A stretch of 64,000 bases of DNA from Psammoneis japonica (GCA_008632985.1 QPGO01000111.1:62001-126000), one strand, 5' to 3'. Shown: positions 1 through 64,000, counted from the stretch's first letter. Numbers and translations: made by a program. Notes: generated by a model not told the origin, from the letters alone.

Positions 1-3000
1 GTTGTAATGTGAGTTTGAAATGTTATGCGCAAAGTGGATTCGTCTCTTTATGAGAGAACATTGAGAAAGAAAAGAAAAGAGGAAGAGAAATCTTTCGAGT
101 TTCAAGTTGTTCGTGATTGATGATTCGTGACACCTGACACCGTTTCTTCGAAAATCTATTTTGTGTGTGTCGTCAGTCGGATTCGGCCGTTGTGTAGCAT
201 CTCTGTAATGACCCTACGTAGGAATGGAATCATGCATGATTGAGTTGAGTCAGTCATGCCTGATGACGATGGAGCCGATCTTTTTGAAAATCTATCGGCA
301 TGCAGCACAGACCGCAGGCCGAAAGGGTGCAAATTCCCTTGTTTGCATGGCATGTGTTTGCAAAAAGCATCAAAACAGCTGATGCTTTTAAATCATTTAT
401 GACACAATCATGGAAAAAATGCCCCCAAATGCTCTCTGCCTCTGCACTCGTCTCGCTCCACAAACAACATGAGACGGCAACGGCAGAAATGCCGCTCGAG
501 CTCAATGGAGGTGGGGCAGCTGGCACCTGCCTTCACAACATCGCTTGTGACACAAAAGCCTGCCACATTGTGAAGACAGATGCCAGCCACCCAACTGCAA
601 TTTTGTGAATGAACGAAGCATTTCTGCCATTGTCGCGCGTTGTTTGCATGGTGAGAACAGAATGCAGTGGGACATTTTTCCCACAATTGCGCCGCAAATG
701 ACTGGAGCAGCAGCAACATTTGATGCTTTTGCAAGTGCACATCATGGGGACAAAAGGGTTTGCATCCTCTCAAAGGTTTGGGAGGGGGGGGGGATGTGGC
801 AATGAGAGCTGGGGAGCCCGCTGACTAAAAACATGTGTGTGCCCAGCTTTTGGCGAGCACTGCCACGCTGCCACATGACAAAACTGGCTGTCCCGCTGAT
901 TCTGCCCCCTGAACCTTCAAGCCTGGCAGACTGAGCTGCTCTCACCATCTGCTTGCCACCTCCTCAACCCATTTTTTTGCAGCCATGTTGCAAGCTACAA
1001 AGTGAGCATGGCTCAACTTTGACACCTTTGCCCGCCCAAGCAAGGACAAACAAGCACCAGCAAGCTGGGTGGATGCCAAGGTGGCTCCCAATGGCAGGAC
1101 TTGCAAACTTGCTGCACACCAGCAGCTCACACTTCCAGCTGCAAAAGACAGTGGTGGTTGGCTGGGGCTGCACTCAATTTGCTCCAAACCTGGGGGCATC
1201 TTGAGAGCTCTGCACAAGGCACAATGTGCTCAGCATCTTTGTTGAAAAACTGCACATGATCTCTGGCTCACTTGCTCCACCAAAACCCTGTGCACAAACC
1301 CTGGAGCACACTGCAACAGAGGCAAAGATTTTGTGGTGGCAGCAGTGCCACCAGCAATTGCAAGTGCCTCAAATCCAGGAGTCAAAAATGGGCGCAAGCA
1401 GCCATTTGAGAGGGCTGCAGCTCTCTGGTCTTTAAAGTGATCATGCCGCCATCCTTGCTGTGCAGCTCCTGATGCGGCACACCAAGCTTTCAGAGCAGCC
1501 TTCCCCTGCACTCCTGTGCCTTTTGTTGGCTTGGACCCAACTGGGCTTGAGTCCAGCCAGTCCAGCAGAAAATGAAAACTGAGCTCCTGTTGCCAGAGAA
1601 GGGAGAAAGCATGGCAGGTTTGGTGGCGGACAAAATGTCCAACCAAGATGGCATGGTCCAGTGTGATGCCATTGACAAAAATGCTGCCCTTGCTCAAAAT
1701 GACATTTCTGATGATGATGCAAGCACCTTCTCCAGATGCCAGTGCTGCTCATGCAATTGCTTTTTCTTGACCTTGTGTTGCTTCTGACAAGCCACCAGCT
1801 GCACCATGACTTGGCCTGGTGTGGCAGCCTCTCAACAAAAAAGCCATGGCCTTCGTGCACTTTGGTGACACCACCGTCAACATGGTGTGCAAGCAAGAAA
1901 GCTCCAAACAAAAAGAAAAAGAAGCTGACATTGCAGAAGAAGAAAGCAGGTCATTGTGCACACCTGACAGCATGGTGCCCAGCTTGTGGTCATCAATGCA
2001 GCTTTCAAGTGTTGTCTTTCTTGTGGTGTTTCAGCTTGATTTCCAAGTTTTTTGCATCATTTCAAAACCACCAAAAAGTTGCTAGAGAGCACAGCACTTG
2101 CTTTGTCAGCTGCATTGTCATCATTGTCTGACTGTGTCCTGTGCCAACTCAACAAGAGCCAGTGCAACAAGCAGTGATTTGACAACTGCAGTTGGGGCAG
2201 CCATGTCATTTTCATTGTGTCTCTTCACAGCAAAAAAATGTTCCACATTCTTGCTGGCATTGCAGTGGCAACCCACCACCACAATGAAGTGAAAGACAAG
2301 TGCAGCACCACAAGGGGGTGTGAAAAAAAATTCCAGGGCCGCAGAGTGCTGAATGTGCAGCAACCATGAACGAACAAAGGGCTCTCAGAAAGAAGCCTTG
2401 CAGATGCTGACTTTTGTCCCCTGCTCACAAAGTTCTTGGTTGTTTTGGTTGCAAATTCTGCTGCCTTGTCTTGTTGGACACAGTCAGGGCCTCATTGCTC
2501 TCCAGCAGATTGCACACAAGCAAACATTTGTCCAGCACCCCTCAGCTGTTGTGTGCTTTGTGCAAGCAAAGAAAAGCAGCCACTCTTGTCACATTCCAGT
2601 GCTGAAGTGTGGTGCAATCCACCCACACATTGGAGGCTGTTTCTAACAGCAGAAGAGCTCTGCAGCTTGCACCCAATGCTTTCAGGGCACTGAAGGGGGC
2701 AGGAGAAGTGAACTTCTTTCCCACCCGGCTTTGTCCTCAGCCCTTTTTTTTTTGCCAAATCAAGTTGTTGTTTTTTTTTTTTGCTGCCAGCTCTGCCACT
2801 GAGAATGGCGGGCACATCATGACATGAAAAGTGGCATGCCATCATCTTGACGCATGACTCAGTTTTGGCACAAATTTGCCATTGGTGCACTGCAGCCAGA
2901 AACCACCTCACCATGGCGGCTCTCTGCATCAGAGCGTGCAATGCAGTGGTCATTGCACATCTTTTCATTGTGATTTTTGTTCCTTTCACAGATGAATTTT

Positions 3001-3316
3001 TTGTGGTTTCAAACCTCATCAGCTGTGCAGCTGGCAATGACATGTCAACTGTGACAGACCAACATTTTGTGCTGTGGGATCAGACCCCCCCTCCCTGTGA
3101 GAAAAAATGTTTCACCATGAAACAGGGGCACGTTTTCCCCGTGAGAGTGCCCACCCTCTGTCCCTGCAAAACCTGCAAATTAAAATCATTTGCATTGTGC
3201 CATGAACATTCTGTTTTGTTGTTTGCATTCAAACCAAATGACGCCGACAGAGACAACACCCCAGAGTCTGCAGCAGCAGCTGCAGCTCACTTTCTTTAAG
3301 TGCCACTGCTTGCAGC

Positions 3317-3935
3317 CACCTTGTTCATTGCCAAAAAAGTGCAGAATGCATTGTGAGAGTGCAATGTGGATGAACTGACACCACCAACAGGAACAGCAAC
3401 ACAGACTTGCCGGTGCATCCGGCACTGCCGATTCTGGAGCAGGCGAGTTTGCAGCAGCTGCTGCAGCTCTCTTTCTTGAAGAGCCGCCGCCAGCACCAGC
3501 AGCCACCTCATTCATTGCCGAATGGTGCAGAAAACGTTGTGAGAGCACAACAAAGATGAACCAACCACAGCCAATGGAGACGTCAATGTGCGGACATGCC
3601 TGTGCATCCAGCACCGCTGACTCTGGACCAGGTGAAGTGACACTGCTCTGATCCACCTCATTCATTGCAAAGAAGTGCAAAACACTTTGTGAGAGTGCAC
3701 AGGACAACAACAGCAACCAATTGAAACCACAACACAGACTTGCTGGTGCATCTGCCATGGCCCATTTGGTTGCTTCTGCCGCCGGTTCCCGACCCCGCAA
3801 AGCCGATTCAGGACCATGTGAAGCAACATTGCTCTGATCCACCTCATTCATTGCAAAGAAATGTGAAATGCTTTGTGAGAGTGCACAGGACAACAACAGC
3901 AACCAATTGAAACCTCAACGCAGACTTGCAGGTGC
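3317..3935 (-). repeat. Four degenerate tandem units (~150-186 bp), possibly repeated exon-intron modules
   Basis: ccacctcattcattgc...ttgtgagag recurs at ~3317, 3503, 3653 and 3839. Confidence 0.75.
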
Positions 3936-4129
3936 GCCCGCCTCTGCCGATTCGGGAGCTTCTGCCGCCGGTTCCCAACCCATCGACATGGAGTTGGCAG
4001 CTGCTGCGGTTGTTGCAGTCAACCCCCCCTGCTGCTCTTGACCACAAACAGCAGAGAGATTTGGGAAGCCTTTAAAAATGAGCCCAACAACTCAGGCAAC
4101 CTCCAATGGGTTGCCTCCCCACTCTCCAC

Positions 4130-4450
4130 CTCTGCAGTCTTTCTGGATCTGGGTGCAGAAATTGGAGACGACGGACGCAACGCAAGTGAACACATCAAAA
4201 ACAAGTGAAGCTCTTTTTGTGCATGCCTTTTTTGAAGAGTGTCACATGTGGCAAAGAACTTTTCATGTGTGTGATTCTGAGAGCTGCAGGAACAAGCACC
4301 GCCTGCAGTCTTTCTGGGTCTGGACACAGAAATTGGAGAAGATGGATGTGTTGTTGGCGAATGTGTCAAAAACCAACGAACCTCTTTTTGCACATGCCTT
4401 GTTTGAACAGTGCAATTTGTGGCAACTTGTGATGATTCTGGGTGCAAAAC
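4130..4450. repeat. Two-copy tandem repeat, ~170 bp unit
   Basis: ctgcagtctttctgg...cagaaattggaga...tcaaaaac...ctctttttg at ~4131 and ~4303. Confidence 0.75.
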
Positions 4451-7400
4451 TCTGACATGCGCGATTGTGACAACGCTGCAGAAAAGTGAGTTTGTGACGT
4501 GCGTGCACACAACACACAACAACACTCCAGCAGCTCAGCCTTCTGGATGCAGTGGATTTGTGACAGCACACTCGTGATTGCAAAATTCAAGCTGCACCCA
4601 AATAAAACCCCATCTTGACCAACCAGAAGGATGGCAGGTGTCACCATGCGTTGAGCTGCTGTCATCGGCCAATGGGGCAAAGTCTTTCACCGCGACCACA
4701 CGCAGGATCCGTGTGAATCACAACAGCACATGCTCTCATTTTTCAAACTTTGGGGAGAGCGTGCTGCAGAAAGAACAAACAGGCATCAGACGCCAGTTTC
4801 CTGGCATTTTGCCGGCAAAACAATTGTGTGGAAATTGTGCACAATTTTAAAAAAGAGATGAGGTTGGATCAAAAAATGTGACAGAGACACACAAAAACGC
4901 GACAAAATGCAATGCAACACAACAAGCAACAACGGCAACCATGTGGGGATAAAAGCCACATCCATGCTAATTTCAGGCATGCTGAAGCAACAAGACAAAC
5001 ATGATGAGTGCAGATGATGCAACATTTGGCTCACTGGTGTCCATCCAACAGCTCCAATTGATCATTCGAGATGATGCCATTGTCATCAATGTCCCGCATT
5101 GTTGCTGCACGTAATTCACGTAGAAAATCGCAAAAAAAAAGCCATCGACAATGATGCTCTGAAATCAACCACAAACTGCATCCAGAGTCAATGTGGGCAC
5201 ACATCTGTGCTCATTGCTTGCCATGAGATGCATCCAATGCATTTTGTCTCACAAAAATCAGTCAACAGCGTCACCGGCGGCATGCCATTGTCAGCATCGA
5301 ATGCCACACAAAAAGCACAGGGACGACGGAAATCGACTTCTTCTGTCGCATTTGTCTGTCCATCACCCGTTTGTCTCGTAGAATCTGTGAGAAAGCTCCC
5401 ACACATTTTGCGGTCTGTCCATGCTTCATCTGACGCCTGTTTGTTCCTGACAGCCGTTTGTTCTGCGTGCGGCGTGCACTGTTGTGAAATGTGCAGAAAA
5501 TTGCGCATGCAAAACACATGCTGAAAATGCCGCAGACCAACAGGCTGCACAAAAGTGAAGAAAAATGAAGGTGGGTCATGTGCGTGCGTGAAGTGATGCT
5601 GCAGACTGCACACGTGCAAAGACACACACACGTGAGCGAGGAGGACAAAGTCAAAGCCAAGTTCAAATTGATTGCGGTCAAAAGGAAACCAAACCATGCA
5701 CAACAAAAAACAGATTTTGTTCCCAATTGAACCAAATCAATGGCAATCTTTCACGCTGCAGAGTCATTTGCGCAGAAATGTGTGGAACAGCACCAAGACA
5801 ATCATTGAAAAGTCTGTCTGTCTGTCCTCAGTGAATTTTGACTTTGCGAAAAATGGACTTGACTGTTTTCTGATCAGGTGCATTTTTCTTCGACACATTT
5901 GCAAAAACGCACCTGACCCGATGACAGTCAAGTCTGTTTTTGCACAAATTGTGTGGGCACAACAGCCTCAGCACAAAAACGTGCAGATTCTGCAGGCGTC
6001 CACAGTTGTTTTGTGCTTTTTACGTCACGGGTCATTTTTGAAAGATTCCCCATTGTTGCGTGCATTTGATCAAAGCTTGTGCAAGAAAAGTCAATGAGAC
6101 ATCAGACAAAATGCAAAAAACAGCTTCATTTTGTCAAGCACTTTTGCTGGCATTTTTTAAGCTCTGCTTGTTGACAATTTTAACAGCGCACGCTCAAAAT
6201 TTTACAAAGGAAAGTGAGGGCCACTGTGTTGCCACCTCTGATGCAGCAGTCATTTTCTCAACTGGACTGCCTTCAAGAGCCACAACAATTGACACAGCAC
6301 ATTGCACCTCATGAACTCATGTGTGGCAAATTTGACACATGAGAGAGCACAGCAAGCTTGTGTTGTTGTCTTGCACAGTCGAAAAGTGAGCTGCAAAAAA
6401 TTGAACATTTCTGCTGTTTTCACTGCAATTGATTGACATTTCAAAGCACAGCAAGCCATGTGCATGTGAAATCAAGCGCAATCTCTGTCAACACATGCCA
6501 GCATCATGGTGAGCTCATGGTTGTCAATGGAGCATGTTTCACTCGTGGTCCACTCCCCAGCGTTCGGAAGAAAGAAAATGCTCAGACACCAACAAATTTC
6601 ACACACAAAATTTAACACCGAGGTCCACATGTGTGCAACCTTGTGCGGCATTGGTGTCTGAGCTCTTTCTCCCTCCAGAGTTCAAGACACTTTTGGTCGA
6701 TTCAAGCCGGCTCAAAATGCTTTTTGCAAAAAGGCCAAATGATCAACAAAATTTTTTCCACTGCCATGCAACTCAGCACCTGACAATGACATCATGCTGG
6801 CGCAACTGCAAGGGCCAAAAATTTGCTGAAACAAACACCACAAAAGGAAGTGAGCACCGCAATGCTTCTGTTGACAAAGTCCGCATCAACAAACATTGAA
6901 ACAGATGGAAACAACACAGCAGAATCAACTCTTGCCATCAGTGTGAAGAAATGCCGCCCAACAATCTTCAATGAGACACAAGAAATCTGCTCGAACCGCG
7001 ATTGACCGTGGCCATGGCACACCAATCACAAAAACACAAACGCAATGATCAGAGTGCTGACTCTGGTTGTTCTGACAATTGTGCCATGTCCTCATTGATG
7101 CAGAAGATCAGATTGTCCATCAAAATCTTGTCCAAAAGCAACACGGCGAATGCAAACCAGCCGCCATGTTTTCTCTTGTTGTGAAAGTGCAGAGTTTTTT
7201 CAAAATGGCTTGATTTGTGAAAAAGCGTCTTGAAATCTGGGAGGGAGTCAGAGGTTGGAGGTTGCAAGAGATGTTGTGCAGAAATGTGCCAAGCATTCAT
7301 TGCACAGATTTCTGCGCAGCATCAAATTGTCTCCACATGTGTGGACCTCTGCACTCCTGAATGCTGGGGAGTGACTTGTGGCCACCATTGTCACTCCATT

Positions 7401-10400
7401 TTGACAAGTCATGGAAAATTTGAAATGTCAAACATTGTTGTTTGAAGGAGCACAGTTGAGTGCAGGTTCTTCACATTCAACATTTTTTGCACAAATGGCA
7501 GGTGCATTTTTTCACTCATTGCAACTCAAAAATGGATGGGTGTGCACTGGCCTTGACTGCCAAACACAACATGTGCCAATGTTTGGACATGAACATTGGG
7601 CTTGCCACCACAAAAAATTGATGCAGGGCAAAATTTCAGTTGGGGGCTTTGTCCCCAGTGCGAGGGGCACATTCTCAAAAAGAAAGACAGAAAAAAGCGC
7701 TGGAGACACAACAGCACACAAGTGCCAAAAGCAGAGCTTTTTTTCATTTTTTCTTGTCAACAAATGCCAGCACTGTGGGGTGTCACCCGATGGTGACAAA
7801 GAGCATGCAATCATGGTGCCAAGAGAGAGGAGCACAGGATGGAAGACCTTGTGTCAAAAGTCAGTGGCCAAGATGCAGCACCACAGTGTTTTGCTCAATC
7901 TTGGTGCAAACAGCGCTTCCAAAAGAAACCAAGACAAGCAAGAGCTGCTGCAGCTGTTTTCTTCAACAGCAGCGCAGCACATGCACTCCCACTGCTTTGT
8001 GCTGGGGGTGCTCCTCATGTGTGTGTTCTTCATCAGCCAGTTTTGTTGCCCTCAAAAGGGCTTTGGCAGGTGACGTGTGACACACTCCAGCTCCAGGCGG
8101 AACTTTTTGTGACATTTGCCTCATGGACTTCTACGTGCAAGCTCTGCACTTCGTACTTTGGTCAATGGACACATTTGTGTTTCACATGAAATGAGCGACC
8201 AAGTTCACGGCACACACGCCCCTGTGTCTGCTCAAAGCTTTGGACAATTTGCCTGCCCTGCGCCATTTCTCAAGACATTTGAGAATGGCGTGCAGTCTGC
8301 TTGCTTTATCGCGCACTTTTTGGCATGCACCCTCTCTGTGACATGTGCTAAAAATCCTGCCTGACCCCTCCAACAAAGGTCAGAAGTCCCTGTTGATGGA
8401 CAGACTGACAGACCATGTCACAAATCCATGATGCGACTGGAGTTTGAGGCAATGAAACCATTGAGACAACACTTGCAACAACTGCAGACACCCTTGTTGA
8501 CCATTGTTTGCCTCCAAGAAGTGGCCCTGGGCTTCTTTGCACCTGACAGGACCAAAAAACTGATGAAGGCAGGTCATGAGTTTTTTCAAAAAAATGCAGC
8601 AGTGGCCACACGAACGTGGCCCCAAAGCATTGTGAGTCATGAGGGAGAAGTGCAAGATTTCAAACCAAAAGCAAATCTTGGCACTGACTGATTCTGCGTG
8701 TGTGGCAAACACACGCACTTTTGCATGAGGATGCAATGACATGTGCCCTCTCCACAACATGTGCTCAAGACTTGTTTCAGACTTGGGTGGTGCGCTCATG
8801 CCCGTTTTTGCACAAAAATGAACATTTGATGCTTCTTTCAATGTCGTCGACATTTTGTGATCACATCAACTGCCTTCAAGCAAAACAAACTGAGCAAATT
8901 TGAGCCCCAACAAACAGCCAAAACGGCCATGGCTTTCAGTGACCATGATGGCCAGCTTTTTTCAACCTCATGGAAAATTTGGTGTCATGATGAGGACCGC
9001 AGCATTTAATGTGGTCTGTGGCATCTGCCACAATGATGGAAATGCTTGATGCAGGCTGCAGCATGGCACAAGAAGACTTGGTCTGTCAGCCCCAAAACAA
9101 CCGAGCCTCAGCTCACTCACAGTTTGCCTCCAAGGTGCATTTCTTTTCCATTTCCATGTGTGTTTCCTCCATGACATGGACTCACGCAAGTGTGCCAGTC
9201 ATTTGTGCTGACAGAGCAGTGAAAAAGGGTCCAAAGTCAAAATGCCATTGCACGCGCTGAGCTTCACTTCTTCTCACGTCTTCTGAAACTTGTTGATCAA
9301 CACATGTTTCATTCAATCCATTGAGACCAACTTGCACACAAACAAGCAGACAAAACATTGTTTGTGTCACATTCAAGAACACATTGGCACACAAGAGTGA
9401 CGATCAATGTTGTTTGTCAACACATGAAAACAGCCACAAATTGCTCATCGGAAAAAAGAGCTCTCATCTTGTGGCGCAATTTGGCGATCAACAACTTGGT
9501 CCATCCTCAGTTTCTCATGCATGGGCACACACACGAGACCTTTCTGCATGCACCCATGATGACACATTTCAAGATCATCACATTTTAACTGTTGAAAATT
9601 GCGCCGTAAGTTTGGGCTGTGCGCTCATGCAAAAAGGGGCATTTTTTTTTGCGTGCATGCACACCCAAGTCTGGAACAAGTCTCAAGTGCAGCATGTGCG
9701 CCCCCAGCACATGTCAACGCAAGCAGACTGCAGAAGAAAAAATGTCAAAAGTTGTTGAGTGGATCTCCCAATGATTGCGCTGTAAAATCGTGCAAAATGC
9801 AGCCAAAATCACGCAGAAATGTGCGTGCGTGACATGCGACGCCATTCAGAAAACTGTCGATGTCACAGCTCAGCAGTGCAAGGTCCCACCTGCCAGACCT
9901 GGAAACATGTTGTGTGAGAGATGGCAGCACTTTGTGTGAGATTTGCTCTTTTTTGCAGAGATGGCAGCCATTCTGAGATGTGGTGTGATGGCAACAACCC
10001 CAGCAGAGAAGCCAAGCTGTGCATCTTGTCTCTTTCTGCAAAGTTGAAGCCACCCATGTTTGCTCTGACAAGTCAAGCAACACACACTTGTGTTTTGTTG
10101 TCTCTTTTCAATCAGAACAAACTGCATTTTTGCCTTTTTGTCAGATGAGGACATGACAGTGCTGCCCCAACACAATGAAGTGAAGAAAAAATGCAGCAGG
10201 AAAATGCACGTGGCATGTGTGGCTCCTGCTTGGAGGAGGGAGCACATCGGAAAGGCAGACAGACAAATGGCACAAGGCGCTGATGGGTGCAGATGGACAA
10301 CACGAGCTGGAGATTCCATGTGATCTTCATGAACATGTCTCTGACCATTTTTGCTCATCTGTGCAGCTGCCATGATTTGGTGCCATGCTGAAGTTTTGAA

Positions 10401-11739: not shown

Positions 11740-11980
11740 TGTCTCTTTTGCTTGTCATGCCAGATTGCCAAAGCTTGACCCGCAAAAGAGAGAAAAGAGC
11801 TTGCAACAGATCAGAGCATTGCGTGTGTTTTGTTTTTTGAGTGGGCTTGTCTTGACAAAAACAGTGCTTCTGCTCACCTTTGCACGCAACCATGTCTCTT
11901 TCGTGCTTTGCACCAGTTTGCCAAAGCATCACCTGCAAAGAAGAAAAAAGAGCATGCAACAGATGAGAGCATGCGTTTGC
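11740..11980. repeat. Two-copy degenerate direct repeat, ~153 bp spacing
   Basis: gtctcttt...ccag.ttgccaaagc...gaaaagagc.tgcaacagat.agagcat at ~11741 and ~11894. Confidence 0.7.
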
Positions 11981-21259: not shown

Positions 21260-24090
<2,831 letters not shown>

Positions 24091-24279
24091 AGAGAGCTTC
24101 ACGCCCCTTGGCGTTGCTGAAGAGGTCTGTTTTGCAATTTTGCCTTTGTAGTGCTGATTGCAGCCTTGAAGGCGCTTAGCGATAATGTGTGCATGTATTT
24201 GATGGACGAAACCTTGGACGAACAAATCACGGGGTATATTTTTTAGTGTCCATAATATATTTACTTTTTACTTCGAGAG

Positions 24280-46060: not shown

Positions 46061-46156
46061 CTTGCACCGCAAGAGGAGTCTTGCGCTCCACTGGACATTG
46101 GGAAGCCCAGAAAAAGGGCCAAAGTAATTCATGCTAGTCCAGCAGTCGTCGCCCAT

Positions 46157-49100: not shown

Positions 49101-49241
49101 GGAGAAAAGACACTGCTCGAGAAAGACTCGCAAAAATTAGAACAGCCCCATGTTGGACCGCATGCAACAACAACGGCACATGCTGATGGCACAGCACAGA
49201 TCAAACGCAGTAACGTCATTGACACTGTCAACATTCGTTGA
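46157..49241 (+). pseudogene. pol: Gypsy Pol: protease, RT, RNase H, integrase (hypermutated; frameshift ~47900)
   Basis: LLDSG, SLDLNMGHYHI, LPMG, YIDD, YTDAG, TTEKELL, HPGINRT..CETC, CVDLVGP, DRGSEF, NPQANAIVER. Confidence 0.93.
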
Positions 49242-55400: not shown

Positions 55401-58400
55401 GCAGCCATGCATGGGCGGGCGAACCAAAACGATCCATGACAGTGTTCGCCATGCGCTTCACGGTCTGGCATCGACGCTCGGCAAAGTTTTGGTGTTGCTG
55501 GTGAGGCTCACTTTGCCAGCTAGAGATGAAGAGGGCGCGCAGGAGCCCGAGCACTTTGTTGCTGATCTCAACTTGAGCACGGTTGCTGATGAGTTTGGAT
55601 GGGGCACCACGTTCACGGATCTGATCCTCGAGTGTGTTGACAAACTCTTTGTCCGTCTTGGTGCCACAGACGTCAGTGACGGTAGACTCGGTGCCAACAA
55701 ACAGTTGGGCGCTGGTGCAACCAGAGTCAACGGCCGGGGTGTCGGCACAAACGGTGTCAGTGGCGATGGGCTCGTTGCGGCGGTGCACATTAAGGGCGGG
55801 GTTGGGTGATTTGCAGGCCTTGCGAAGGTGTGTACCGGCGGGCATGCGGGCGCACTGCGTGGTGCAGTCAAAAGTGCGACGGACCGCATCGGCAGGTGGG
55901 AAGCCAAAGCAAGGCCGAAGAGACTCGAAGGGGGGGTCCTTGGGCTGTGCAGTGCGCTCCGGAGGTGGAACATCATCGCCCTGGGGGCCAATCGCATGCA
56001 GATGACACTCGTAGAACACGTCGTCGTTCGGAATGAGGTGATCATCGAGGGCGGACGCGTGATCGGCAGACAAGGAAGCGGACATGATGGTCTCGTTGAC
56101 AACGACACGATGACGGCAGTTGCCGCATTCGTCAAATGGGTTGGCAGTGGGATCGTCCTGCAGGTCAGAGATCGCATCGCACCACTGGTCGTCGTCAGTG
56201 ACAGAGTGATCGAGGACGGAAGGGTCCCATGTGTCATCACCGGTGAGGATGACATGGGGCAGGGTGTCCCATTCGGCGTCAGTGCAAGGTCGCATGGCAA
56301 CATGAGGCAGGCCAGCCTTGATGTCAATGGGGATGACACAGCCATCAGGAGTGGCAGTGCGTTGCAAGCCGTTGGGCACCTTGACAGAGCGATCGTTGAC
56401 ATCCTGTTTGTGCCATTCGAGCTGGCCGCAGGAATGGATGGTCTTGCCCTTGCCCGTGCATGCGTGCTGATGGAGTGTGGCGATGACGGGACCACGCTGG
56501 GTCTCAATGACGGCACCAGCGGTGACAATGGGGATGTCCACCAATTGATGATCGTCAATGCCCTGAACGTCGACTTGGCGAGAGGTGCGTGCAATGACGC
56601 GAACGTCGTCGCCAGCAATGCCGCCGTTGGCCCCACGATCGACTAGAGCACCAGTGCGTGTGGAGCGATGAGCAGAAGCAGAGCAAATGACATTGTGGTT
56701 GTCAACGCGGCGGTAAGTGCGACCGTCAAGTTCCATGTCATCTGCAGAAGCTGGCGGGGTAGAGGAAGCGGCGGATGGCCCCGGTCGACTGGCATTGGGG
56801 GCTTGGTTAGGAGACAACAGACGTTGCAGATCACCGGGTGGCAGTGGCTTGTGCTTGGTGAGGTGCGCCAGGATGGGATTGTCCGAAGTGGCGTCCACAT
56901 GTGGAGCGGAGTCACCAGAGTCAGCAGGAGTCGTGTTGGACAAGTTGACATCACCGTCACTCCCAAGGCGTTGGTCGTGAAGGTTGGCCGTAACAGACTC
57001 ATGGCAGTTGCTGGCTCGCGGGTTGCGGGGAGGTGGACGAGAATGCTCAAGGATGATCGCCTTGGAGGAATCGGGCAACGAATCCCAGAGCCGTTGGTGG
57101 TCGGGAGGGAGACGTCTCCATTGGACACCGGCGAGGCTGGGACCGCGGGTGCAGGCAGCATTGGCTTGAAGGACGTCAACGTCGCTGTCAATGTCGTAGA
57201 ACACATCGTCGGACGGTTCCTCGGAGTGGACGTCGTGTGCGCACATGGCGCGTCGGGGAGCTCGAGGTGTCGTCTTGGGTTGAAACGTGCTGTCGTGCTG
57301 AGCTGCGGCGGAGAGGAGCAAGCCACAGCATTGATCGTATGTGAGGCTCTTGCCACTCTGCGCACGATGCTGATCAGCTTGGTTCTTGACAGCACGGAGT
57401 TCCTCGACAGGGTGCACGGCATTCTCGAGCATGACGCGCTTCTGTCCTTCAGAGAAGTGGTCACTGGCCGGGATGAGTGCCTCGCACTTGCGCAACTGAT
57501 CTTGCCAATGAAGGATGAACCCGTGGGTCGGACCTTTCCAAGTGCCATCACCAAGACGCGCGGTGGTGAGGTGCGTGAGCAGGGTGGAGGACTCGACAGA
57601 TGCGCGGGTGGAGGCAAGCGCGCACTCAGACAAGGAGCGGCAGACGGTCTGTGCATCAGAAGACCCCACATTTTCGCGAATGAGAGCCTTGCCCTTGTCG
57701 GTGAGAAGGATGCGTTCGAAGACGGCGAACATGCACTTTTGCTGTTCAGCAAAGAGCAGTTTGTCTTCGGGGCTGGTCGGTTTGTACGACGAGTCTAGAA
57801 TGCACTCGACGTCTTGGGCACGGGCTTGTGCCACAAGTGAGGTGTGCCAAGTGTGCCACTGCTTGTCGGATTTGAGAGCCGTGAAAGCGGTGGGATCACG
57901 CTTGATGCCTCGCTTGAAGTCCCGCACCGGGTCGCGTGCCTTGGTCGGGTTGGTGACATGTGGAGGTGCAAGGGGTGAGCTGCCGATGGACACAGAAGAC
58001 ATGCAGTCGGGGCTGAGGCGGCAGGCAAGGAACTCGTCATGCGTGAACAAAGAGGAGTCGTTGGCAACGTCAAGACCTTTGTGTGCTTTGACAATGTGCA
58101 GACTGACCAGTGCTGCTAACATGTTCTTACAACCATGGGGCAAAGGGATTGCATTGGTGCCGTTGTCGTGCTCAAGCGAGTCGATTTGGGACGGTGTGAA
58201 CGTGAATGGTTCCTGATGCGAGTCCGTGCCGTCTTGGGCCAAAGCCAAACGAAGAGGACTCCCAGCACCTTGGGCAAGCACGGTTCCAACCACGTGCTCA
58301 AAAACCATCGGTTTGTTGCTGACGAGTGAGAACCATGGCAGACAAAGGTGGTGTCAGGACAATCAATTCTGGTTGGGAAGCGAAGGTGGACTCGAAACTT

Positions 58401-59554
58401 GGGTGAGAACAGACTTGACTTGAAATGGACTTGACTTGAAATCTTGAACTGTCTTAAAATCAGAAGTCGCCGGGCTTTGTCATCCCGTTCGTTGTTGAGT
58501 GCTAAACTTCCTGTCCGGTCCGTAGAGTTGTGCCGGCACGTCCGAACCCGCAGCCAGTGGCGCTTTGGGTTGCTTACGAGCGGAGTAGCGGGTTGTAAAC
58601 CCCTGCAGGCAAGCTGACTAGAGGTGGACAAGACCCCCGAACCGTTCTTGTTTTATGTCGGTTGGATTTCCCGATCAGGCTGGCCAGCTGATGCAGGCGT
58701 CAGGCGCTGTGGACGAACGAACAAACGCGGGAAAGCACCCTCGCCCCAACGCAGGCTGTGATCACGGCCACCTGCTCTCACAGTCGTCCTCGTGGACCTA
58801 GCAGAACTGTAGAGCACCAGCAGTCCGGGGTGGATCAGGTGCAATGGACTCGGTGTGCTTGCAGAGTGGCAGCAAAACCGAAGTCCGAAGAGTGGATAAA
58901 GGTTCTTGGCCGTGAAGACATGCACATGTACACACATGTCTTCAGCGACGAAGATCCTTGAACATGCAGGGTTCTTGACCGTTAACCGAGGAACAGGCAC
59001 ATCAAGGGATGTTGATCAAGGATGGGACTTGGACATGACCGTTGAATGTAAGTCTTCAGCGATCAAAGGCAGCACAATCAATCCAGATATCCAGCGGTAA
59101 GGAGACTTGACGGTGACGTTAACTTCCTGCCGATGCCCTGGTGTTGAATGCGCGTAGACTTGCCGATGTATGTAGAACACACACGGAGGTCCACGTAGAA
59201 TTGAAATAGCGTCGTTGGTAAATCAACGACGACGATGGCGGTTGCTCAATGGGTTGACAATGAGCAAGACTGTTAATCTGACAGAAATTGAAGGCAAATG
59301 GCAAGAATTCAAACAATGACTCCTTGCTGCTGTCCAAATGGCAGATGAGTCTCCGCTCAGAGACCGTTGCAGGAGCCGAAAGACGTGCAAGTCGGCACAA
59401 TCGGGCCACTGTTGTCATTCTTGTGAGCCTTGTGGCTCGAAAGCAAACTACATCGCGCGTGAACGCGCGGAACTAAAGCACACAAAACTGTGCACGGTAA
59501 ACTAAACAGCGCGCGATGCTTCGCGCGCACCTGAATCCTGTTCAAATCCTGTCA
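52447..59554 (-). mobile_element. Full-length Ty1/Copia (CoDi-like) LTR retrotransposon
   Basis: ~275-bp LTRs at 52447-52721 and 59279-59554, PPT actggggag adjacent to 52721, domain order gag-PR-IN-RT-RH, ~1 kb 5' leader. Confidence 0.95.
52719..58336 (-). pseudogene. Copia Gag-Pol polyprotein (hypermutated; frameshifts near 58310, 53540, 53330)
   Basis: LVDRGANGG (PR), EPHQQHQNFAER (IN), DVKHDGRHKARL, DIGNAHLEA, KALHGLRSSG, AVCVDD (RT; YVDD>CVDD), VDANL, ETATCGSEF, NPADILSK (RH). Confidence 0.93.
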
Positions 59555-59559
59555 GGCAA

Positions 59560-62500
59560 TGCTGCACCTGTCCCACTTGTGCTTTGCAACCATCAAGACA
59601 AACCATGCACAGCTGAATCCCAATGTCATTGCAGCACTGCACACAATCCTTCATGGGTTCATGGACAAGTTGGGGTCATCTCGCAGCAGCGCCAACATGT
59701 CGTTGCATTGGAAGCGGCAGCATTTTGGTCATGGCAACATGGTTTTGTTCCACTTGTTTGTGCAAGTGCTGTTGGGGTCATGTCATTCCCACCTGATGAC
59801 ACATTGTTTCCTCATGGACATTTGCTTGTTGTCACTTGCCAGAGGACACAGACAAATCATTTCAAACAACTTCAAACACTTTGAACAATCTCTTGGGCAA
59901 TGTGAAGGGCAACAGAGACAGAAACCTCCAAATGTTTGAAGCTTTTGTCCATCCCACACAATGTCCATGTGGAGACACATTGACAGGAATTGGGAATCTT
60001 CCACTTCTTTTTCAAACCTTTGATGTTTCCTGGATCACCCATGAGCACAATTGATGGAAAAAGGAGGGGAGCAGCAGAGCAAGGTGCCAGGCATGTGGCT
60101 GTGGTGCAGCAGCTGCCATTGAGCATTGGCCCTCTGGCTGACTGTTGACACAATCAGAAAGAAGTGCCCAACAGACAAGTGCCAGCTGCTGCAGCATGTC
60201 TCTGGAGGTCTCTGGAACATTCTTTTGATTTGTTGGTGCAACTTGAGTTGCGGCGTGCAGCTCAAAGTCAAGGGGAGGGGGAACAGGGGGGGGCAAGAAA
60301 TGGCGCACTGGTGCACAGAAGACACAGGAGCAGCAAGGCATCTGCAGGAACCACAGCTTTTGCTGTTGAAAAAACAAAAGATTTGCATTCTTGGACAGTG
60401 CCATGGTTGCCATGAATTGCAAGTTTTTGGAAGGAAGTTTGAGTGCCACACAAGTTGCATCATGTGAAAAGGTGAAGTCTGGTCACAAAAATTCTTGCAC
60501 AGAAAGAAGCACAAAGTGAAAAGCAAAGAGGAGGGTCTTGCAGGATGAGCTGGTTGTTTGTTTTGCAGTGGGCTCAATTTTGACATTCAAGCAGTTGAGA
60601 GAAGCAAACTCCAGGTGCAGTTTTGACATGAAATGGCCAGCTTCTCAAAGATTTTCTTTCACCCAGTTTGTGCTGTGGCACAGGTGCCGTGTGGACAGCA
60701 GCTGCAGCTTGGGGGGCAGCGACAGGTGGCAATCCAGACACACCAGCTTGCTGTTTTGAAAAAGCTGCAGTTGCAACCCAACAAAGCCAGACAGCAGTTC
60801 CCAGAAGCAAACCTCTTGCATGAAGTTGGGCTGTTGCCACTGAGATGCTTTTGGATGTGAGGAAGGGAAACAAGAGAGCTCATTTCCAGCTGCTGGCTGG
60901 GCTGGATGTTTGTGAGTAAAAGCAGGCATCATGCTGCAGCTGGCACAAGCAAAGTCACTGGAGATGACTCAAACTGGGGTCACGTGCATCATGATGTTGA
61001 AAAAGGGGAGCAGGAGCATTGGATCAAAAGGAAACAGAAAAGGCACTGCAAAGGCAAGGGCACCCCCACTGAGGTTCTGAAAAGCATGCCAAATTTGCAA
61101 CCCAGTTGCCCAGCAGCATCCCTGTGAAAGAGTTTTGTTGTTGCTGCATTTCTGTCTTGCACTCATCATCCAAGTTCAGGAGTGTAAATTGGTGAATTGG
61201 AGAAGCTGATGATTTGATCAAGGTGCTGAAGCAACACAAAAGGTTGAGTGTGTGCAGGGCAGCAAGCCACATTGCAAGCCTGTGCAAGTTAAAATCACAC
61301 ACAGATGAGCCATGGTGAGGCACTGAAAAGAGTGACAAAACAAGCTGGTGGGGGGACAAACTGTGAAGCATGCTCATGGTGTGCAAGCACAAAGCTCTTT
61401 TTCAGCATGCTGCATTTTTTAGGCACTGGCCAGAGGGCTGCAGCCAACTCTCTTTTCAACCAGGTTTCAGTGCTTCTGTCTCTTGATGTCTCAGTCTTTG
61501 CTTCTCATGAAGTGTGATGAGGGTTCCAATGCAATGACATGGAGTTGTCATGTGTTGGGGCCCCACAATCCATGGCACAGAGATTTGGGGACAACATGAA
61601 ATGAGTGTGCATGACATCATTGATCAAAACAGAGTTGCGCTTGGGGTGCATTTCTCTTTCATTGGCACCAGCACAAAAGGATGATGATGAGCAAAGGAAG
61701 CAGCTGAGGTGCACCCCAGACATTGCCTTCTTCCAAACCATCACAATGTTCCCACTCAGCACTGTCACTTGGGCTTCAGAGTTGGGGCCTGGCAGCTGTG
61801 ATGTGACTCCATCTTGAGCTGCTTGCAAGCAGTGACTTCACAGACACAGCAGCAGTGAGGGCCTGGAGGCAGCTCAATGAGAGTGGATGACAAAAGCAGA
61901 CATCAGAAGACATGTTGCACATGCTCACAGAACAGCTCAATTGGGGACCAATGAGCAACCTCTGATCAAAAACAACCTTGCTCAGCAGCAAATGTCAGTT
62001 TCAAGGGTTTGAAGCAGCAGCAGCAAATGCTCCAGTCTAGGTGCTGCATGCACCACAGATTCTTTGGTGGAAAGACAGAACGAACCAGTGCTTGTGCTCT
62101 CTGTGCATCTAAAAAAAACTTGCTGAGCAAAGGCAGGCAAGACAAAGGCTGCATCATGCACCTTGGGCACATGATGCCTCAGCTGCCTTTGAACTTTGGC
62201 GCCGGGCATGTGCACTGGTTTCTTGCACCCCTCCCATCCCTTGGTGGTGAGAACAAAACCAACTTGACCTGACAGACAAGCTGGAATGGTGCTGTGCCAG
62301 CACAAGCATGCCTGAGATTGGTGTGGAGGTGGAGGATGTGGATTGAATCAAGAGATGAATCAAATTGACATGAAGTCACATGCACTCACCTTGTGCACAG
62401 ACAATGCTGTCCTTGTGTGGACACCAAGACTTGTTTGGGATTCACTTGGTGACTTGAATGACGCCATCCAACACCAAGAAATTGCTGCAATGGGTGGATT

Positions 62501-64000
62501 GAAAACACAAGTGCATCTTGAAACTTGGAGTGGCTGTGGTGCAAGACCTTTTTGACTTGCTTGCAATGCCAGCTGCACTGGAAATGTGTTCATTCTCACC
62601 TCTTCTTGCTCATGAAGCCAGCCATCAATGACAAGATCCGCGCCACTGTGTCAGGATGCAAGCATGAAGAAGAAACAAAACAGCAAGGAAACAAGCTCAC
62701 ATGCATCCTCAGAGCATGCTTTGACTGCCAACTCTGCTTGATGCTGACTGTGGCATGGCATCTGACAACTTGCTTTGGGCCCACGGGAGGATCAGAGCTT
62801 TTGGTGCTGCACGTGGTTGTTGTTGTTGGATTGCAGTTGCTGTGTTGTTGCCTTTGACATTGGCACCTCCATGCCACAAAAGATGTGACAAACTCTTTTA
62901 GAAACTTGAAACACAAGACTGGTGGGGGATGTCTCCAGCCAGCTGCTGGCTGAAAAAATCTGCCTGTCAATGCATTTGATGACAGACTCTTCCAGCACCA
63001 ATTCTGCACACAAAATTCTTCAGCCAGCAGCTGGCTGGAGACTTCCTCCAAGACAGAGGATCCAGTGATGCAGCTTTGAAGAAGCCCTGCCACATCAAAA
63101 GAAACATGGCGACTCCAAAATTCAAACAGTGAAATGTCTTTGGCCTGTTGGGGGCAAAGGTGCTGGTGGTGGAAGTCTGTGGATTCCCATGGGGATGCTC
63201 AGAGAACATCAGTGCTTTGGTGATTGCACCATGACGATGTGCGATGGAGTGTCAAAAATCAAGAAAAACAGTTGGTGCCACAGCGCTGCAAATTGCTGAG
63301 CAATTGCATGATTCACTGCCTGAAGGTCAAGTGTCATTGCCTGGAGCAACATTCTCCCTTCGTGCAGATGTCCATTCTGCATGGCACATGGCATTGAAAA
63401 TCTCATTGCAGCTGCATGAGGCACAGTCCAGGCAATTTCATCAAATGACCTCTTTGGTGCACTGTGCTGTGTGATCTACACACATCGGACATTCTTGAAT
63501 GCTGGTGCATTTTCTGCAGTCTCCACATGCATGAAGCTCAAATTTTGTGCCTGAAGGAACAACCACCCCCTTTGGGCACGCAAATCACACAATTGTTCAG
63601 CAATTTGTGTTGAGCATTTAAACACCCCACATCACAGAAAGCTGCGCACAGGCAGATGCGTGTCACACTCATTTTCATTTTTCTGGGGATTTTGCCAGTT
63701 GCCCATCTGCCCAAAATCAACCACTGTCAGACCAAGCCCTTCAGCTTCTGTGGTGCTTTTGCAATGACAAGAGCACAAATGCAAAAATTGCCAATGGCAA
63801 AACTGGCACTCATCTCTGTGATGCTCATTTTGAAGACAATCAGCTCCACACCACCAACAACCCCAATCTTGTGACTGACATGCGTCATGACATTGTGGTG
63901 AGAAATTTCATTGTGTTCAGTTGTGTTTGTGCACCACATGGTGCAGCATCATGTTTTGATGTTTTTTGGGGTGTCACCTGTCCTTGTTTTGCTCACAGTC
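59560..64000. other. TpA- and CpG-depleted degenerate domain, contiguous with 50000-51729 before the TRIM/Copia insertion
   Basis: Almost no TA and little CG. Shared GGCAA TSD at 51725-51729 and 59555-59559. No recognisable domains. Confidence 0.75.

Follow-up and report, generated by a model that had tools for sequence, protein, structure and literature searches.

Results

Genes, transposable elements and TA-poor blocks

The window, a stretch of 64,000 nucleotides from the diatom Psammoneis japonica (GCA_008632985.1, QPGO01000111.1:62001-126000; positions are counted from its first letter), is a mosaic of gene islands and blocks poor in the dinucleotide TA, whose content is given below as an observed/expected ratio (o/e). 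Its features are as follows:

401..20800: largest TA-poor block, degenerate, with internal repeats; 59 TA in 20.4 kb
19252..19643, minus strand: old copy of a MITE-like element, same family as 36488..36883
20801..29300: gene island; TA o/e 0.50, CG 0.96
exons ~21414-23806, plus strand: H+-pyrophosphatase gene, in the gene island 20801..29300
24341-27968, minus strand: hybrid histidine kinase, in the same island
24279..26461, minus strand: direct tandem duplication within the kinase gene, 1,092 bp, 96.9% identical; an internal control
28505..35667, plus strand: hypermutated copy of a non-transposon duplicated segment, in three pieces with a Helitron between
29968..32215, plus strand: Helitron, internally deleted; matches residues 12-650 and ~1799-1904 of its homologue
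36488..36883: MITE-like element, intact; apparent 12-bp terminal inverted repeat, 4-bp target duplication
36901..38000: TA-poor single-copy block; 1 TA, o/e 0.02, GC 57%, depth 53
38235..41637, plus strand: unmutated partner of the duplicated segment, in a gene island; TA o/e 0.52-0.57, CG ~1.05
38883-39500, minus strand: SAM-domain gene, in the unmutated partner
44491..49667, plus strand: Gypsy LTR retrotransposon; LTRs 44491-44869 and 49289-49667, TG..CA ends, target duplication CTTT; interior with a possible gag, RT-RNase H and integrase
49601..51700: TA-poor block; 4 TA, o/e 0.03, CG o/e 0.29
52447..59554, minus strand: Copia LTR retrotransposon; LTRs 52447-52721 and 59279-59554, coding region 52765-58308
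59501..64000: TA-poor and strongly CpG-poor block; 10 TA, TA o/e 0.03, CG o/e 0.13

Dinucleotide counts per kb, together with a two-state segmentation of the window, delimited the TA-poor blocks (401-20800, 29301-30300, 30801-31400, 32701-36500, 36901-38000, 43701-44500, 44901-46100, 49601-51700, 52601-58500 and 59501-64000). These add up to 41,400 bp with 130 TA (o/e 0.02-0.09), as against 552 TA in 15,100 bp of normal-TA sequence (o/e 0.50-0.85, with values of ~0.5 in the gene islands), and in them TG and CA rise to o/e 1.3-1.9 while GC is unchanged or higher. The depletion recognized in a preliminary description of this DNA is thus real, as is the normal TA content of the gene islands. The five depleted intervals that it listed are correct in outline, with an exact boundary at ~28780, but 'nearly eliminated' overstates the case for three parts in which TA is merely lowered: the Helitron at 30301-30800 and 31401-32700 (o/e 0.27-0.28), the Gypsy pol at 46101-49600 (0.26) and the Copia leader with its LTR at 58501-59500 (0.48).

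The largest block (TA o/e 0.04, CG 0.38, TG 1.88, CA 1.75) ends a few hundred bases upstream of the H+-pyrophosphatase gene; it has no recognizable protein domain, and a Pfam search with 14 of its ORFs returned nothing credible. The Helitron, which lacks the helicase, since its match is confined to the two stretches of the homologue listed above, is present in ~12-31 copies by depth; its TA is partly to strongly depleted (o/e 0.05-0.28) and its tyrosine content is 0.4%, comparable figures for the Gypsy element being 0.2-1.0%. We found no clean target duplication for the Copia element. Its coding region (TA o/e 0.09, CG 0.91, GC 58%) has lost ~95% of its TA, whereas the 5' leader and LTRs (TA o/e ~0.48) have kept about half; a simple whole-domain model leaves this contrast unaccounted for.

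Direction of the change

That TA was the ancestral state, and TG or CA the product, is shown by three lines of evidence: paralogues that escaped mutation, LTR pairs and tyrosine codons at conserved positions. First, the 140 TA sites of four unmutated copies read 57 TG, 48 CA, 21 TA and 14 other in the mutated copy, such that 105 of the 119 lost TA turned into TG or CA, and the double change to CG is seen once in the 140 sites; the correspondence of TA in one copy to TG or CA in the other, as originally described, is borne out. The three pieces of the hypermutated segment (28505-29085, 32760-33442 and 33593-35667) have lost 11/23, 9/12 and 71/77 of their TA, and the old MITE-like copy has kept none of 28 (15 became TG, 9 CA and 4 other). 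Second, the LTR pair of the Gypsy element differs by 24 substitutions, all of them transitions, with 21 at TA-derived sites, 8 of them TG/CA mismatches.

Third, the tyrosine codons act as an outgroup and agree with this polarity. At 39 columns with a tyrosine conserved in 25 Copia homologues, the copy in the window has retained it at 2, with Cys at 19 and His at 14. Residues of the other classes, where 20 or more columns were available, are mostly retained, from Val (29/42) at the lowest to Pro (41/43) at the highest. The motifs CVDD, DIGNAHLEA and KALHGL singled out earlier are indeed present in the Copia ORF, where the 25 homologues have tyrosine, and QFPCGRGG occurs in the Helitron at 30989 on the plus strand in place of QFPYGRGG (16 Y, 5 F and 3 H among 25 homologues). 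Likewise, the 72 tyrosine positions of the homologue P0123 read 7 Y, 31 C and 16 H in the window; in 78 metagenomic relatives the combined share of Cys and His at these positions is 0-9%. The TA-loss signature is absent from all 78 of these Copia relatives, and TA o/e spans 0.35-1.02 across the 79 related loci.

Sequence specificity and strand use

Counted symmetrically over both strands, A>G changes affect 107 of 273 sites in TA (0.392) as opposed to 32 of 619 in AA (0.052), 29 of 489 in CA and 20 of 521 in GA, with rates of 0.038-0.059 after 5' bases other than T. The A:T>G:C conversion is therefore almost exclusive to 5'-TpA-3'. A confinement of A:T>G:C transitions to certain domains could in principle come from error-prone synthesis or repair specific to heterochromatin, be it of the Pol-eta type (WA>WG), one of the candidates proposed at the outset, or a mismatch-repair bias, with no dedicated base-modifying enzyme. 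However, AA is not raised along with TA, as Pol-eta would have it, and the strict requirement for a 5' T, the preference for a 3' C set out below and the near-saturation better suit an enzyme that reads sequence, leaving such synthesis a distinctly improbable source.

The two strands are used about equally (57 TG versus 48 CA; 19 Tyr>Cys versus 14 Tyr>His), and outcomes do not cluster in tracts (36 runs, 31.9 expected). The choice of strand nevertheless depends on context: sites with TAC on the top strand only gave 23 TG versus 2 CA, and those with TAC on the bottom strand only gave 6 TG versus 16 CA (Fisher p=5e-6). Directly 3' of the edited A we counted 11 A, 44 C, 18 G and 24 T, which corresponds to relative strand-choice rates of 6.4 for C, 1.6 for T, 1.3 for G and 1 for A (p=3e-5), and over whole blocks the gain of TGC/GCA is twice the expectation for an even split. 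The preferred target is hence the A of 5'-TAC-3', with an approximately six-fold preference for a 3' C. Among the residual TA, the rarest context is TAT/ATA and not TAC; and at the +2 position of the edited A there is no preference for G (A 23, C 26, G 26, T 22). From the LTR pairs and the loss of tyrosines, the mutation rate at TA comes to ~120-390 times background, or roughly 100-400 times.

The same alignments reject fungal-type RIP: C>T at CpA is not raised (0.047, equal to CC and CT), TpA is destroyed and GC is the same or up, in line with the original exclusion of this process.

A separate, slower loss of CpG

In the older blocks CG has also turned into TG or CA, at 90 of 186 CG sites, a change overlooked in the preliminary description. 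C>T reaches 0.244 at CG versus 0.043-0.057 elsewhere, and CG o/e in these blocks falls to 0.13-0.44. The LTR pairs, on the other hand, have kept all their CG (22/22 in the Gypsy pair and 20/20 in the other) while ~60% of their TA is gone. The decay of CpG is thus a separate and slower process. It may well be the ordinary decay of methylated CpG, as diatom transposons are reported to be CpG-methylated (PMC9998398). Such decay matches the CpG part of the pattern alone: it offers no route to A:T>G:C at TpA, and here it lags far behind the loss of TA, which upholds the earlier view that deamination of 5-methylcytosine does not account for the latter.

Action on integrated DNA, independent of repetitiveness

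The mutation took place on chromosomal DNA after integration, because the two LTRs of a single Gypsy insertion have diverged from each other by the TA signature. It affected retrotransposons, the Helitron, the MITE-like element and the non-transposon duplicate alike and thus needs no RNA intermediate. This bears on A-to-I editing of transposon transcripts by an ADAR- or ADAT-like enzyme with fixation through reverse transcription: while a 5' U preference is common to RNA adenosine deaminases and retrotransposons are heavily affected in the window, the LTR divergence, the near-equal use of both strands and the inclusion of DNA transposons and of a non-transposon segment contradict it. We reject editing at the RNA level, to which we leave a vanishingly small probability.

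Nor is duplication the trigger. The duplicated segment, at least 3.4 kb in length, is mutated in one copy only, itself single-copy with a k-mer depth of 63-72, and the mutated tract sets in at ~28,780, about 280 bp into the segment: to the left of this point 5/5 TA are kept, while to the right 11/18 are lost. In general, the boundaries between TA-poor blocks and gene islands are sharp, within ~100-300 bp, and do not follow homology. The tandem duplication in the kinase gene underwent no TA-directed change, since 32 of its 36 TA are common to both copies, and the intact MITE-like copy retains 28/28 TA (o/e 0.85) in the midst of a TA-poor block, although its k-mer depth of 14,000-56,000, versus ~64 for single-copy DNA, indicates a family of hundreds of near-identical copies. 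Conversely, single-copy DNA is among the TA-poor blocks. The process is therefore independent of repetitiveness, and the 'repeat-domain' target first suggested has to be given up; a mutator coupled to domains of silenced DNA, as proposed with it, fits the sharp boundaries that are independent of homology. The intact MITE-like copy further implies that the process is episodic or slow.

These observations also weigh on a RIP-like mechanism in which homology sensing, perhaps during a sexual phase, would expose repeats to mutation, with TpA as the target in place of CpA. In its favor, most of the TA-poor DNA comes from transposons present in multiple copies (Gypsy, Helitron and Copia), 15 sites with TG/CA mismatches between the paralogues might reflect a brief mutation of both copies, and DNMT4, a relative of fungal RID whose function is given as unknown, is described from many diatoms (PMC9998398). 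The spared paralogue with its internal boundary, the untouched tandem duplication, the intact MITE-like copy and the mutated single-copy DNA all run counter to it, and we hold homology sensing to be very unlikely.

Support from sequencing reads

We further considered whether the pattern is an artefact of sequencing or assembly, in which G or C is called wrongly where silent DNA carries a modified base at TpA. In nanopore data, base modifications can lead one purine to be called as the other, and likewise for pyrimidines, and the only runs come from one sample with no library type on record. The read check used Logan k-mer contigs of the public run X1 (~64x), which may share its sample with the window and is not of orthogonal chemistry. 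These contigs span 33322-36048 and 36856-38167, both TA-poor and single-copy, with 0, 0, 15 and 13 differences; in total there are 28 in 4,058 bp of such contigs versus 0 in 5,550 bp of island contigs. The TA-poor sequence is reproduced by these independent k-mer contigs. Beyond this, the outcome at each site is fixed as TG or CA and dependent on context, whereas miscalls on both strands would yield many CG and TA calls, and TA>CG was seen in 1 of 140; one TA-poor block encloses a MITE-like copy that is unmutated; and the older a mutated copy, the more transversions, indels and CpG decay it also bears. An identical signature is also reported to have arisen de novo in Illumina data from Bigelowiella natans (10.64898/2026.01.13.699255). 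An artefact is accordingly barely credible.

Discussion

A probable adenine deaminase acting on silenced DNA

The window records a post-integration hypermutation at TpA, at the level of DNA, in sharply bounded domains that are transposon-derived and probably silenced. We consider it probable that it was brought about by domain-targeted, TadA/ADAT-like adenine deamination. Here, a deaminase related to TadA or ADAT2 would convert adenine to inosine, which is read as G; it might be recruited by marks of the domain, such as heterochromatin or small RNAs, and would act in episodes. The TadA/ADAT-like candidate of the preliminary description gains support from the 5'-TAC-3' preference.

Alternatively, the mutated base could be the thymine. 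TA being palindromic, A>G in TAC is indistinguishable from T>C in GTA. If silent chromatin carried an epigenetic thymine mark on TpA (5'-GTA-3'), for instance 5-hydroxymethyl- or 5-formyl-uracil made by a dioxygenase of the TET/JBP type, this might mispair with G and result in T>C, with the decay of TA as a by-product of the mark, as the decay of CpG is of 5-methylcytosine. Base J and the 5hmU of dinoflagellates prefer T before A in silent or repetitive DNA; moreover, the losses of TA and CpG share the same blocks, and both dinucleotides are palindromes that could bear a maintainable mark. Against this stand the lead of TA loss over CpG loss, evident in the Copia coding region and in the fully retained CG of the LTR pairs, and a rate that is high for a by-product; also, we know of no such thymine modification in diatoms. 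The bursts confined to some B. natans lines, as described in the preprint, likewise resemble episodes of an enzyme (10.64898/2026.01.13.699255). On balance, a thymine mark is unlikely.

No new stop codons arise from the process: all tyrosine codons turn into those for Cys or His, and TAA and TAG are erased as well, such that dead elements retain long false ORFs. In practical terms, long ORFs in TA-free DNA are to be distrusted, and transposon proteins without tyrosine offer a simple marker of further affected genomes. The LTR pairs and the pair of mutated and unmutated paralogues constitute clean natural experiments for measuring the process, and the 5'-TAC-3' preference narrows the search for the enzyme.

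Comparison with known systems

Like the diatom process, fungal RIP inactivates transposable elements in the genome through a high load of transitions in a given dinucleotide context. However, RIP changes C to T at CpA, makes TpA and stop codons, lowers GC and is triggered by duplication with both copies being hit, whereas in the diatom TpA is destroyed, GC is raised, no stops are made and duplicates are not the trigger. The AID/APOBEC and ADAR enzymes provide precedents for hypermutation by deaminases as a defense against selfish or viral nucleic acids. The APOBECs, unlike the activity seen here, change C to U (G>A) on cDNA, as opposed to A:T>G:C on integrated DNA. ADAR is an animal enzyme with double-stranded RNA as its substrate; the changes in the window lie on both DNA strands and include DNA transposons. 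TadA and ADAT2-ADAT3 come closer, in converting A to I with an obligatory 5' U/T, a preferred 3' C and Tyr (UAC) to Cys as the typical recoding; TadA is described as editing mRNAs within UACG, with Tyr UAC>UIC as the typical event (PMC11472039). Their natural substrates, though, are RNA loops, and TadA requires the G at +2 for which the window has no preference, making the match to UACG a partial one.

The closest parallel is the chlorarachniophyte B. natans. The preliminary description knew of no account of such a system; a 2026 preprint reports de novo TpA>TpG/CpA mutation in this alga, and 'undescribed' therefore no longer holds. According to the preprint, 230 of 231 de novo mutations in two regions of Illumina-sequenced mutation-accumulation lines were A>G or T>C, all 230 of these lay at TpA, and rates reached ~1e-7 to 1e-6 per site per generation in some lines only; TpA-poor coding sequences in the genome are enriched in reverse-transcriptase and DDE domains, and Mettrop et al. 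propose an ADAT2-like deaminase (10.64898/2026.01.13.699255). Its main text does not contain the words 'CpG', 'TAC', 'trinucleotide' or 'diatom'. Our literature search returned this single rhizarian report of the TpA signature, and none for diatoms, for a 3' C preference or for saturation across transposon DNA.

We take the diatom process to be of the same kind. Going by the preprint, both show A:T>G:C only at TpA, with TG or CA depending on the strand, and both are restricted to foreign or selfish regions, exceed the background by orders of magnitude and look episodic. The regional confinement matches, but the targets in the window are transposons and their neighbors rather than viral insertions. 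The hosts, too, are a rhizarian and a stramenopile, respectively. Further, the reported B. natans targets are mainly giant-virus and virophage insertions with a mild TpA depletion (Rho 0.45), compared with an o/e of 0.02-0.09 here, and the mutations were seen arising de novo, whereas in the diatom they are read from their products alone. The diatom case, at saturation, makes the phenomenon more than a quirk of a single species or data set, and widens it from viral insertions to ordinary transposons and the DNA beside them.

We tentatively raise the possibility, which we regard as less than even, that diatoms and chlorarachniophytes share an old defense, in which a TadA/ADAT-derived deaminase acts at silenced chromatin on chromosomal 5'-TAC-3'/TpA. 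To our knowledge, no natural DNA adenine deaminase acting on its own chromosome as a genome defense has been characterized. Should such a defense exist, the tyrosine-free Helitron proteins that we found in public data would be its footprint in further genomes, and all tyrosine codons of transposons and integrated viruses would be erased without the creation of stops. Nature would then have a DNA adenine base editor of its own, and fungal RIP a counterpart working in the direction A:T>G:C.

Loss of TA and its redistribution into TG and CA

Counts per kilobase place the observed/expected ratio (o/e) of TA at 0.00-0.08 across most of 1001-20000, 34001-36000, 37001-38000, 50001-51000 and 60001-64000, and those of TG and CA at 1.7-2.1 in the same TA-depleted kilobases; the gene-bearing intervals 21001-29000 and 38001-44000 have TA at 0.41-0.63 and CG at about 1. 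Two-state segmentation of the window delimits ten TA-poor blocks that total 41,400 bp and hold 130 TA, as against 552 TA in normal sequence, which covers 15,100 bp; the edges of these blocks lie no more than a few hundred bases from gene starts. Added together, the o/e values of the four pyrimidine-purine dinucleotides remain constant (3.93 in the gene island 20801-29300 and 4.05 in the block 401-20800), which indicates that TA and CG have been redistributed into TG and CA. Most of the stretches that the preliminary description had presented as nearly devoid of TA are indeed close to zero; the depletion is less extreme in parts of the Helitron (0.27-0.28), the Gypsy pol (0.26) and the Copia leader with its LTR (0.48). 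The elements and copies relevant here are:

44491-49667, plus strand: Gypsy element
52447-59554, minus strand: Copia element
29968-32215, plus strand: Helitron
36493-36884: MITE-like copy, paired with the old copy 19252-19643
38235-41637: unmutated copy of a duplicated non-transposon segment
28505-29085, 32760-33442 and 33593-35667: pieces of the diverged copy of that segment

By the same segmentation, the near-zero-TA blocks range in CG o/e from 0.13 to 0.97, and none of the segmented blocks of the window is CpG-poor yet TA-normal. TA loss therefore comes first, with CpG decay following later and more slowly. Diatom transposons are reported to be CpG-methylated (PMC9998398).

No credible Pfam domain was found in 20 long ORFs of the TA-poor DNA, which returned two sub-threshold hits only, and 401-20800 gave no tblastn match to the Copia or Helitron homologues; hence, this block is regarded as transposon-derived by analogy only. 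Degenerate tandem or dispersed internal repeats, 69-87% identical, occur within this 20-kb TA-poor block at 12753-14867 and 3298-3981, where the absence of TAA and TAG alone accounts for long ORFs in several frames.

TA as the ancestral state and its loss after integration

Three independent lines show that TA is the ancestral state: the comparison of mutated with unmutated copies, the Copia outgroups and the LTR pairs. First, the 140 TA sites of the unmutated copies correspond in the mutated copies to 57 TG, 48 CA, 21 TA and 14 other dinucleotides, and 21 of the 25 TA present in the mutated copies are common to the partner. Both strands are therefore hit, with TG and CA outcomes randomly mixed (36 runs vs 31.9 expected in a runs test) and strand-coordinated tracts absent.

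Second, at the 39 columns that have Tyr in 80% or more of 25 Copia homologues, the Copia of the window has kept only 2 Tyr, with 19 Cys, 14 His, 3 Phe and 1 Arg in the remainder, a split between Cys and His that again points to both strands. The other residue classes with at least 20 columns are largely retained, from Val (29/42) up to Pro (41/43). Tyr accounts for 7 of the 1,721 residues of the ORF (0.41%), as opposed to 3.0-5.0% in the 120 listed homologues, and the 72 Tyr positions of one homologue, P0123, are occupied in the copy of the window by 7 Y, 31 C and 16 H. Across 78 related metagenomic loci the Cys plus His share is 0-9% (median 3%), and the 79 related loci that were fetched have a TA o/e of 0.35-1.02. 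The motifs CVDD, DIGNAHLEA, KALHGL and QFPCGRGG, which had been put forward earlier as instances of Tyr loss, are all present as claimed.

Third, the Gypsy element has TG..CA ends and a 4-bp target duplication, CTTT, from which it follows that both its LTRs were identical at insertion. Over 379 bp these LTRs now differ by 24 substitutions, every one a transition, and 21 of these are at TA-derived sites (5 cases of TA against TG or CA and 8 of TG against CA), with all 22 CG unchanged. The mismatches of TG with CA, together with the intact CpG, imply that an ancestral TA was lost separately in each LTR. The Copia LTRs, for which no clean target duplication was found, likewise have 11 TA-related changes among 15 substitutions and have kept 20/20 CG. 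Divergence within LTR pairs means that the process acts on integrated DNA, and retroelements are not its only substrate: the MITE-like element, a Helitron with an internal deletion and the non-transposon paralogue are affected as well.

When TA survival is set against how far the same LTR pairs have diverged at non-TA sites, our own arithmetic has TA mutating roughly 220-310 times faster than other sites in the Gypsy element (13/34 TA copies survive vs 3 other substitutions) and gives a ratio of roughly 120 in Copia (7/18 survive vs 4 other substitutions). The survival of 2/39 conserved Tyr in the Copia coding region gives a ratio of roughly 390, and the (TG+CA)/TA ratio of the oldest block corresponds to at least about 90-fold, if it is at equilibrium.

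Sequence context and probable chemistry

A>G substitution by preceding base, strand-symmetrised, mutated vs unmutated copies
TA: 107/273
AA: 32/619
CA: 29/489
GA: 20/521

Besides the excess of A>G after a 5' T, the same comparison gives C>T at 90/369 in CG and 0.043-0.057 in the remaining contexts. By trinucleotide, the A>G rate is 0.65 in TAC, 0.35 in TAT, 0.31 in TAG and 0.22 in TAA. This preference for TAC is visible in the choice of strand: sites with TAC on the top strand only became 23 TG and 2 CA, and those with it on the bottom strand only became 6 TG and 16 CA (Fisher p=5e-6). In 97 edited-strand contexts the base at +1 of the edited A is C in 44, T in 24, G in 18 and A in 11, with no preference at +2; a paired-choice model gives relative rates of 6.4 for C, 1.6 for T, 1.3 for G and 1 for A (likelihood-ratio p=3e-5, n=99). 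Over whole blocks the gain of TGC/GCA is 15.1 per 1,000 trinucleotides, as against ~7.2 for an even split. TAC makes up 47/130 of the surviving TA vs 288/552 in normal sequence (p=0.001). Against this, the preference is not visible in loss as against retention of TA, which shows no significant dependence on TAC (p=0.33), and the least frequent context among survivors is TAT/ATA; in the Copia Tyr codons it has the expected direction without reaching significance (p=0.16).

The best reading of these patterns is that A in 5'-TA(C)-3' of chromosomal DNA would be converted to inosine by a sequence-reading deaminase, a candidate enzyme that would be brought to silenced domains and work episodically. 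The main rival is a thymine-centred chemistry, namely T>C in GTA, which would fit equally on sequence alone, TA being palindromic. For an adenine deaminase, a likeness is offered by TadA, which is reported to edit RNA within UACG, with UAC>UIC (Tyr>Cys) as a typical recoding; the 5'-T and 3'-C are in common with the process in the window, while the +2 position of TadA is unmatched here (PMC11472039). The remaining readings (a RIP-like process, RNA editing, a polymerase, an artefact) are each contradicted by a particular test.

A consequence that follows from the genetic code is that the process creates no new stop codon: TA-poor DNA has 1.5 TAA and 0.9 TAG per kb, vs 8.8 and 7.8 in normal sequence. 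Every Tyr codon is converted as well. With stops removed and Tyr codons converted, dead elements retain ORFs of great length (1,721 codons in Copia, for example), and because of this stop-free decay the length of an ORF is no evidence of function in such DNA.

The TA-poor sequence and sequencing artefacts

Were the TA-poor sequence made up of miscalled bases, the choice between TG and CA would have to be explained, which is context-dependent; TA>CG is seen only once in 140 sites, and the mutated copies have transversions and indels in proportion to age, all of which speak against miscalling. The Logan k-mer contigs of the public sequencing run X1 (mean word depth ~64; a single sample, possibly the source of the window, rather than a second chemistry) match TA-poor single-copy DNA without a difference along 362 bp (apart from 1 gap) and along 680 bp, and depart from it at 15 sites of 1,704 bp and at 13 of 1,312 bp; along 5,550 bp of gene island they have 0 differences. 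This agreement indicates that the TA-poor sequence was not made by the assembly pipeline; the contigs of two further runs, X2 and X3, do not cover TA-poor DNA. Within 34345-38167 there are 28 X1-contig differences in 3,016 bp of single-copy TA-poor DNA, which are mostly transitions among those listed and include TA/TG, TA/CA, CA/TG and CA/CG pairs, suggesting alleles or culture lineages that diverged within hypermutated DNA.

What is targeted

Repetition is not the trigger. Mutation of the duplicated segment is confined to one of its two copies, and in the piece 28505-29085 TA is kept 5/5 at 28541-28709 and lost 11/18 from 28787 onward, which places a tract edge inside duplicated DNA. A tandem duplication in the kinase gene (96.9% identity) has kept 32/36 TA. 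The TA-poor DNA at 33313-35968 and 37297-37960 is single copy, with a k-mer depth of 53-72 vs about 64 in the island.

The MITE-like element at 36488-36883, which has a GGTG target duplication and what looks like a 12-bp terminal inverted repeat, has kept 28/28 TA inside a block that lost about 95% of its own, whereas the old copy at 19252-19643 has kept 0/28. Spared and hit copies together indicate that the mosaic tracks insertion age and position in the domain; the process must be slow or episodic. With a k-mer depth of 14,000-56,000 in X1 vs about 64 for single-copy DNA, this family probably ranks with the elements of the genome that are most abundant and were active most recently.

At 58309-59554, the 970-bp 5' leader and LTR of Copia have kept about half of their TA, as opposed to a loss of about 95% in the coding region next to them. 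A younger insertion, which would explain the retained TA, was searched for in the leader (58309-59278) and none was found; possibly, a dead copy was mobilised in trans with its cis-acting parts kept under selection.

Genes and further elements

Besides the Copia, Gypsy and Helitron elements, the window contains a hybrid histidine kinase gene and an H+-pyrophosphatase gene with introns. Among the homologues of a pyrophosphatase exon that have an organism name, Triparma (a bolidophyte) is the one exception to an otherwise all-diatom set, with a best identity of 90%, and this assigns the window to a diatom; a protein search of Atlas with the kinase gave bacterial look-alikes only, which are uninformative on taxonomy. 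The 1,092-bp direct tandem duplication of the kinase gene (24279-26461) repeats the receiver-domain region, and its overlapping or abutting ORFs suggest short introns or frameshifts:

24341-25372, minus strand: kinase ORF
25432-27048, minus strand: kinase ORF
27003-27968, minus strand: kinase ORF

Two 223-bp direct repeats with normal TA (51723-51945 and 52224-52446, 97.3% identical) adjoin the Copia LTR and have the same terminal bases; a related, younger element may have left them as partial or solo LTRs. The Helitron at 29968-32215 has a deletion of the part matching homologue residues ~650-1799, including the helicase. Its k-mer depth points to about 12-31 copies, likely of a non-autonomous derivative. 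In the normal island, a 604-codon ORF at 41515-43329 on the minus strand has no Pfam domain, and a set of 5.8 billion proteins contains a single weak relative (E=6e-10, 22% coverage).

Spread and comparison with known systems

The TpA signature is absent from all of the 120 Copia homologues listed and from all 78 metagenomic Copia loci scored. Of the Helitron representatives drawn from a library of 1.84 billion proteins, 115 could be scored, and these include five (P0285, P0247, P0358, P0261 and P0387) with 44-67% Cys/His at reference Tyr positions and 0-4 Tyr left there, and a sixth, P0357, with 36% Cys/His; the Tyr content of all six is zero or nearly so. Their mutual identity of only 25-49% means that several Helitron families are affected, and they may come from P. 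japonica or from other species. Tyrosine-free transposon proteins could be a cheap marker with which to screen other genomes for the process.

The preliminary description had posited an undescribed, domain-coupled TpA mutator. Its observation is confirmed and its inference is largely sound, but the process is not undescribed: a full-text search located one matching description, a preprint in print since 2026, in Bigelowiella natans (10.64898/2026.01.13.699255). There, mutation-accumulation lines are reported with 231 of 302 new mutations in integrated giant-virus and virophage regions; 230 of the 231 are A>G or T>C, all 230 at TpA; the rate is about 6e-7, and the mutations arise in some lines only. 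The preprint also lists 324 TpA-poor coding sequences enriched in reverse-transcriptase and DDE domains and proposes an ADAT2 homologue as the enzyme; in its main text the terms 'diatom', 'CpG', 'TAC' and 'trinucleotide' are absent. The cluster of X1 differences at 34345-38167 resembles the raised SNP density reported for the B. natans hypermutable region (10.64898/2026.01.13.699255). The window itself is not from B. natans: its genes resemble those of diatoms, and TA makes up 2.5-4.6% of dinucleotides in its islands as against 6.0% reported for the B. natans genome (10.64898/2026.01.13.699255). The literature searched, with subscription journals and bioRxiv supplements outside its reach, holds no report of TpA depletion or hypermutation in a diatom. 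The kind of process is therefore already in print, in an alga that is only distantly related. Relative to the literature searched, it is new that the process occurs in a diatom, saturates transposon-derived DNA, acts after integration (proved by an LTR pair), does not depend on duplication, is separate from CpG decay and prefers 5'-TAC-3'.
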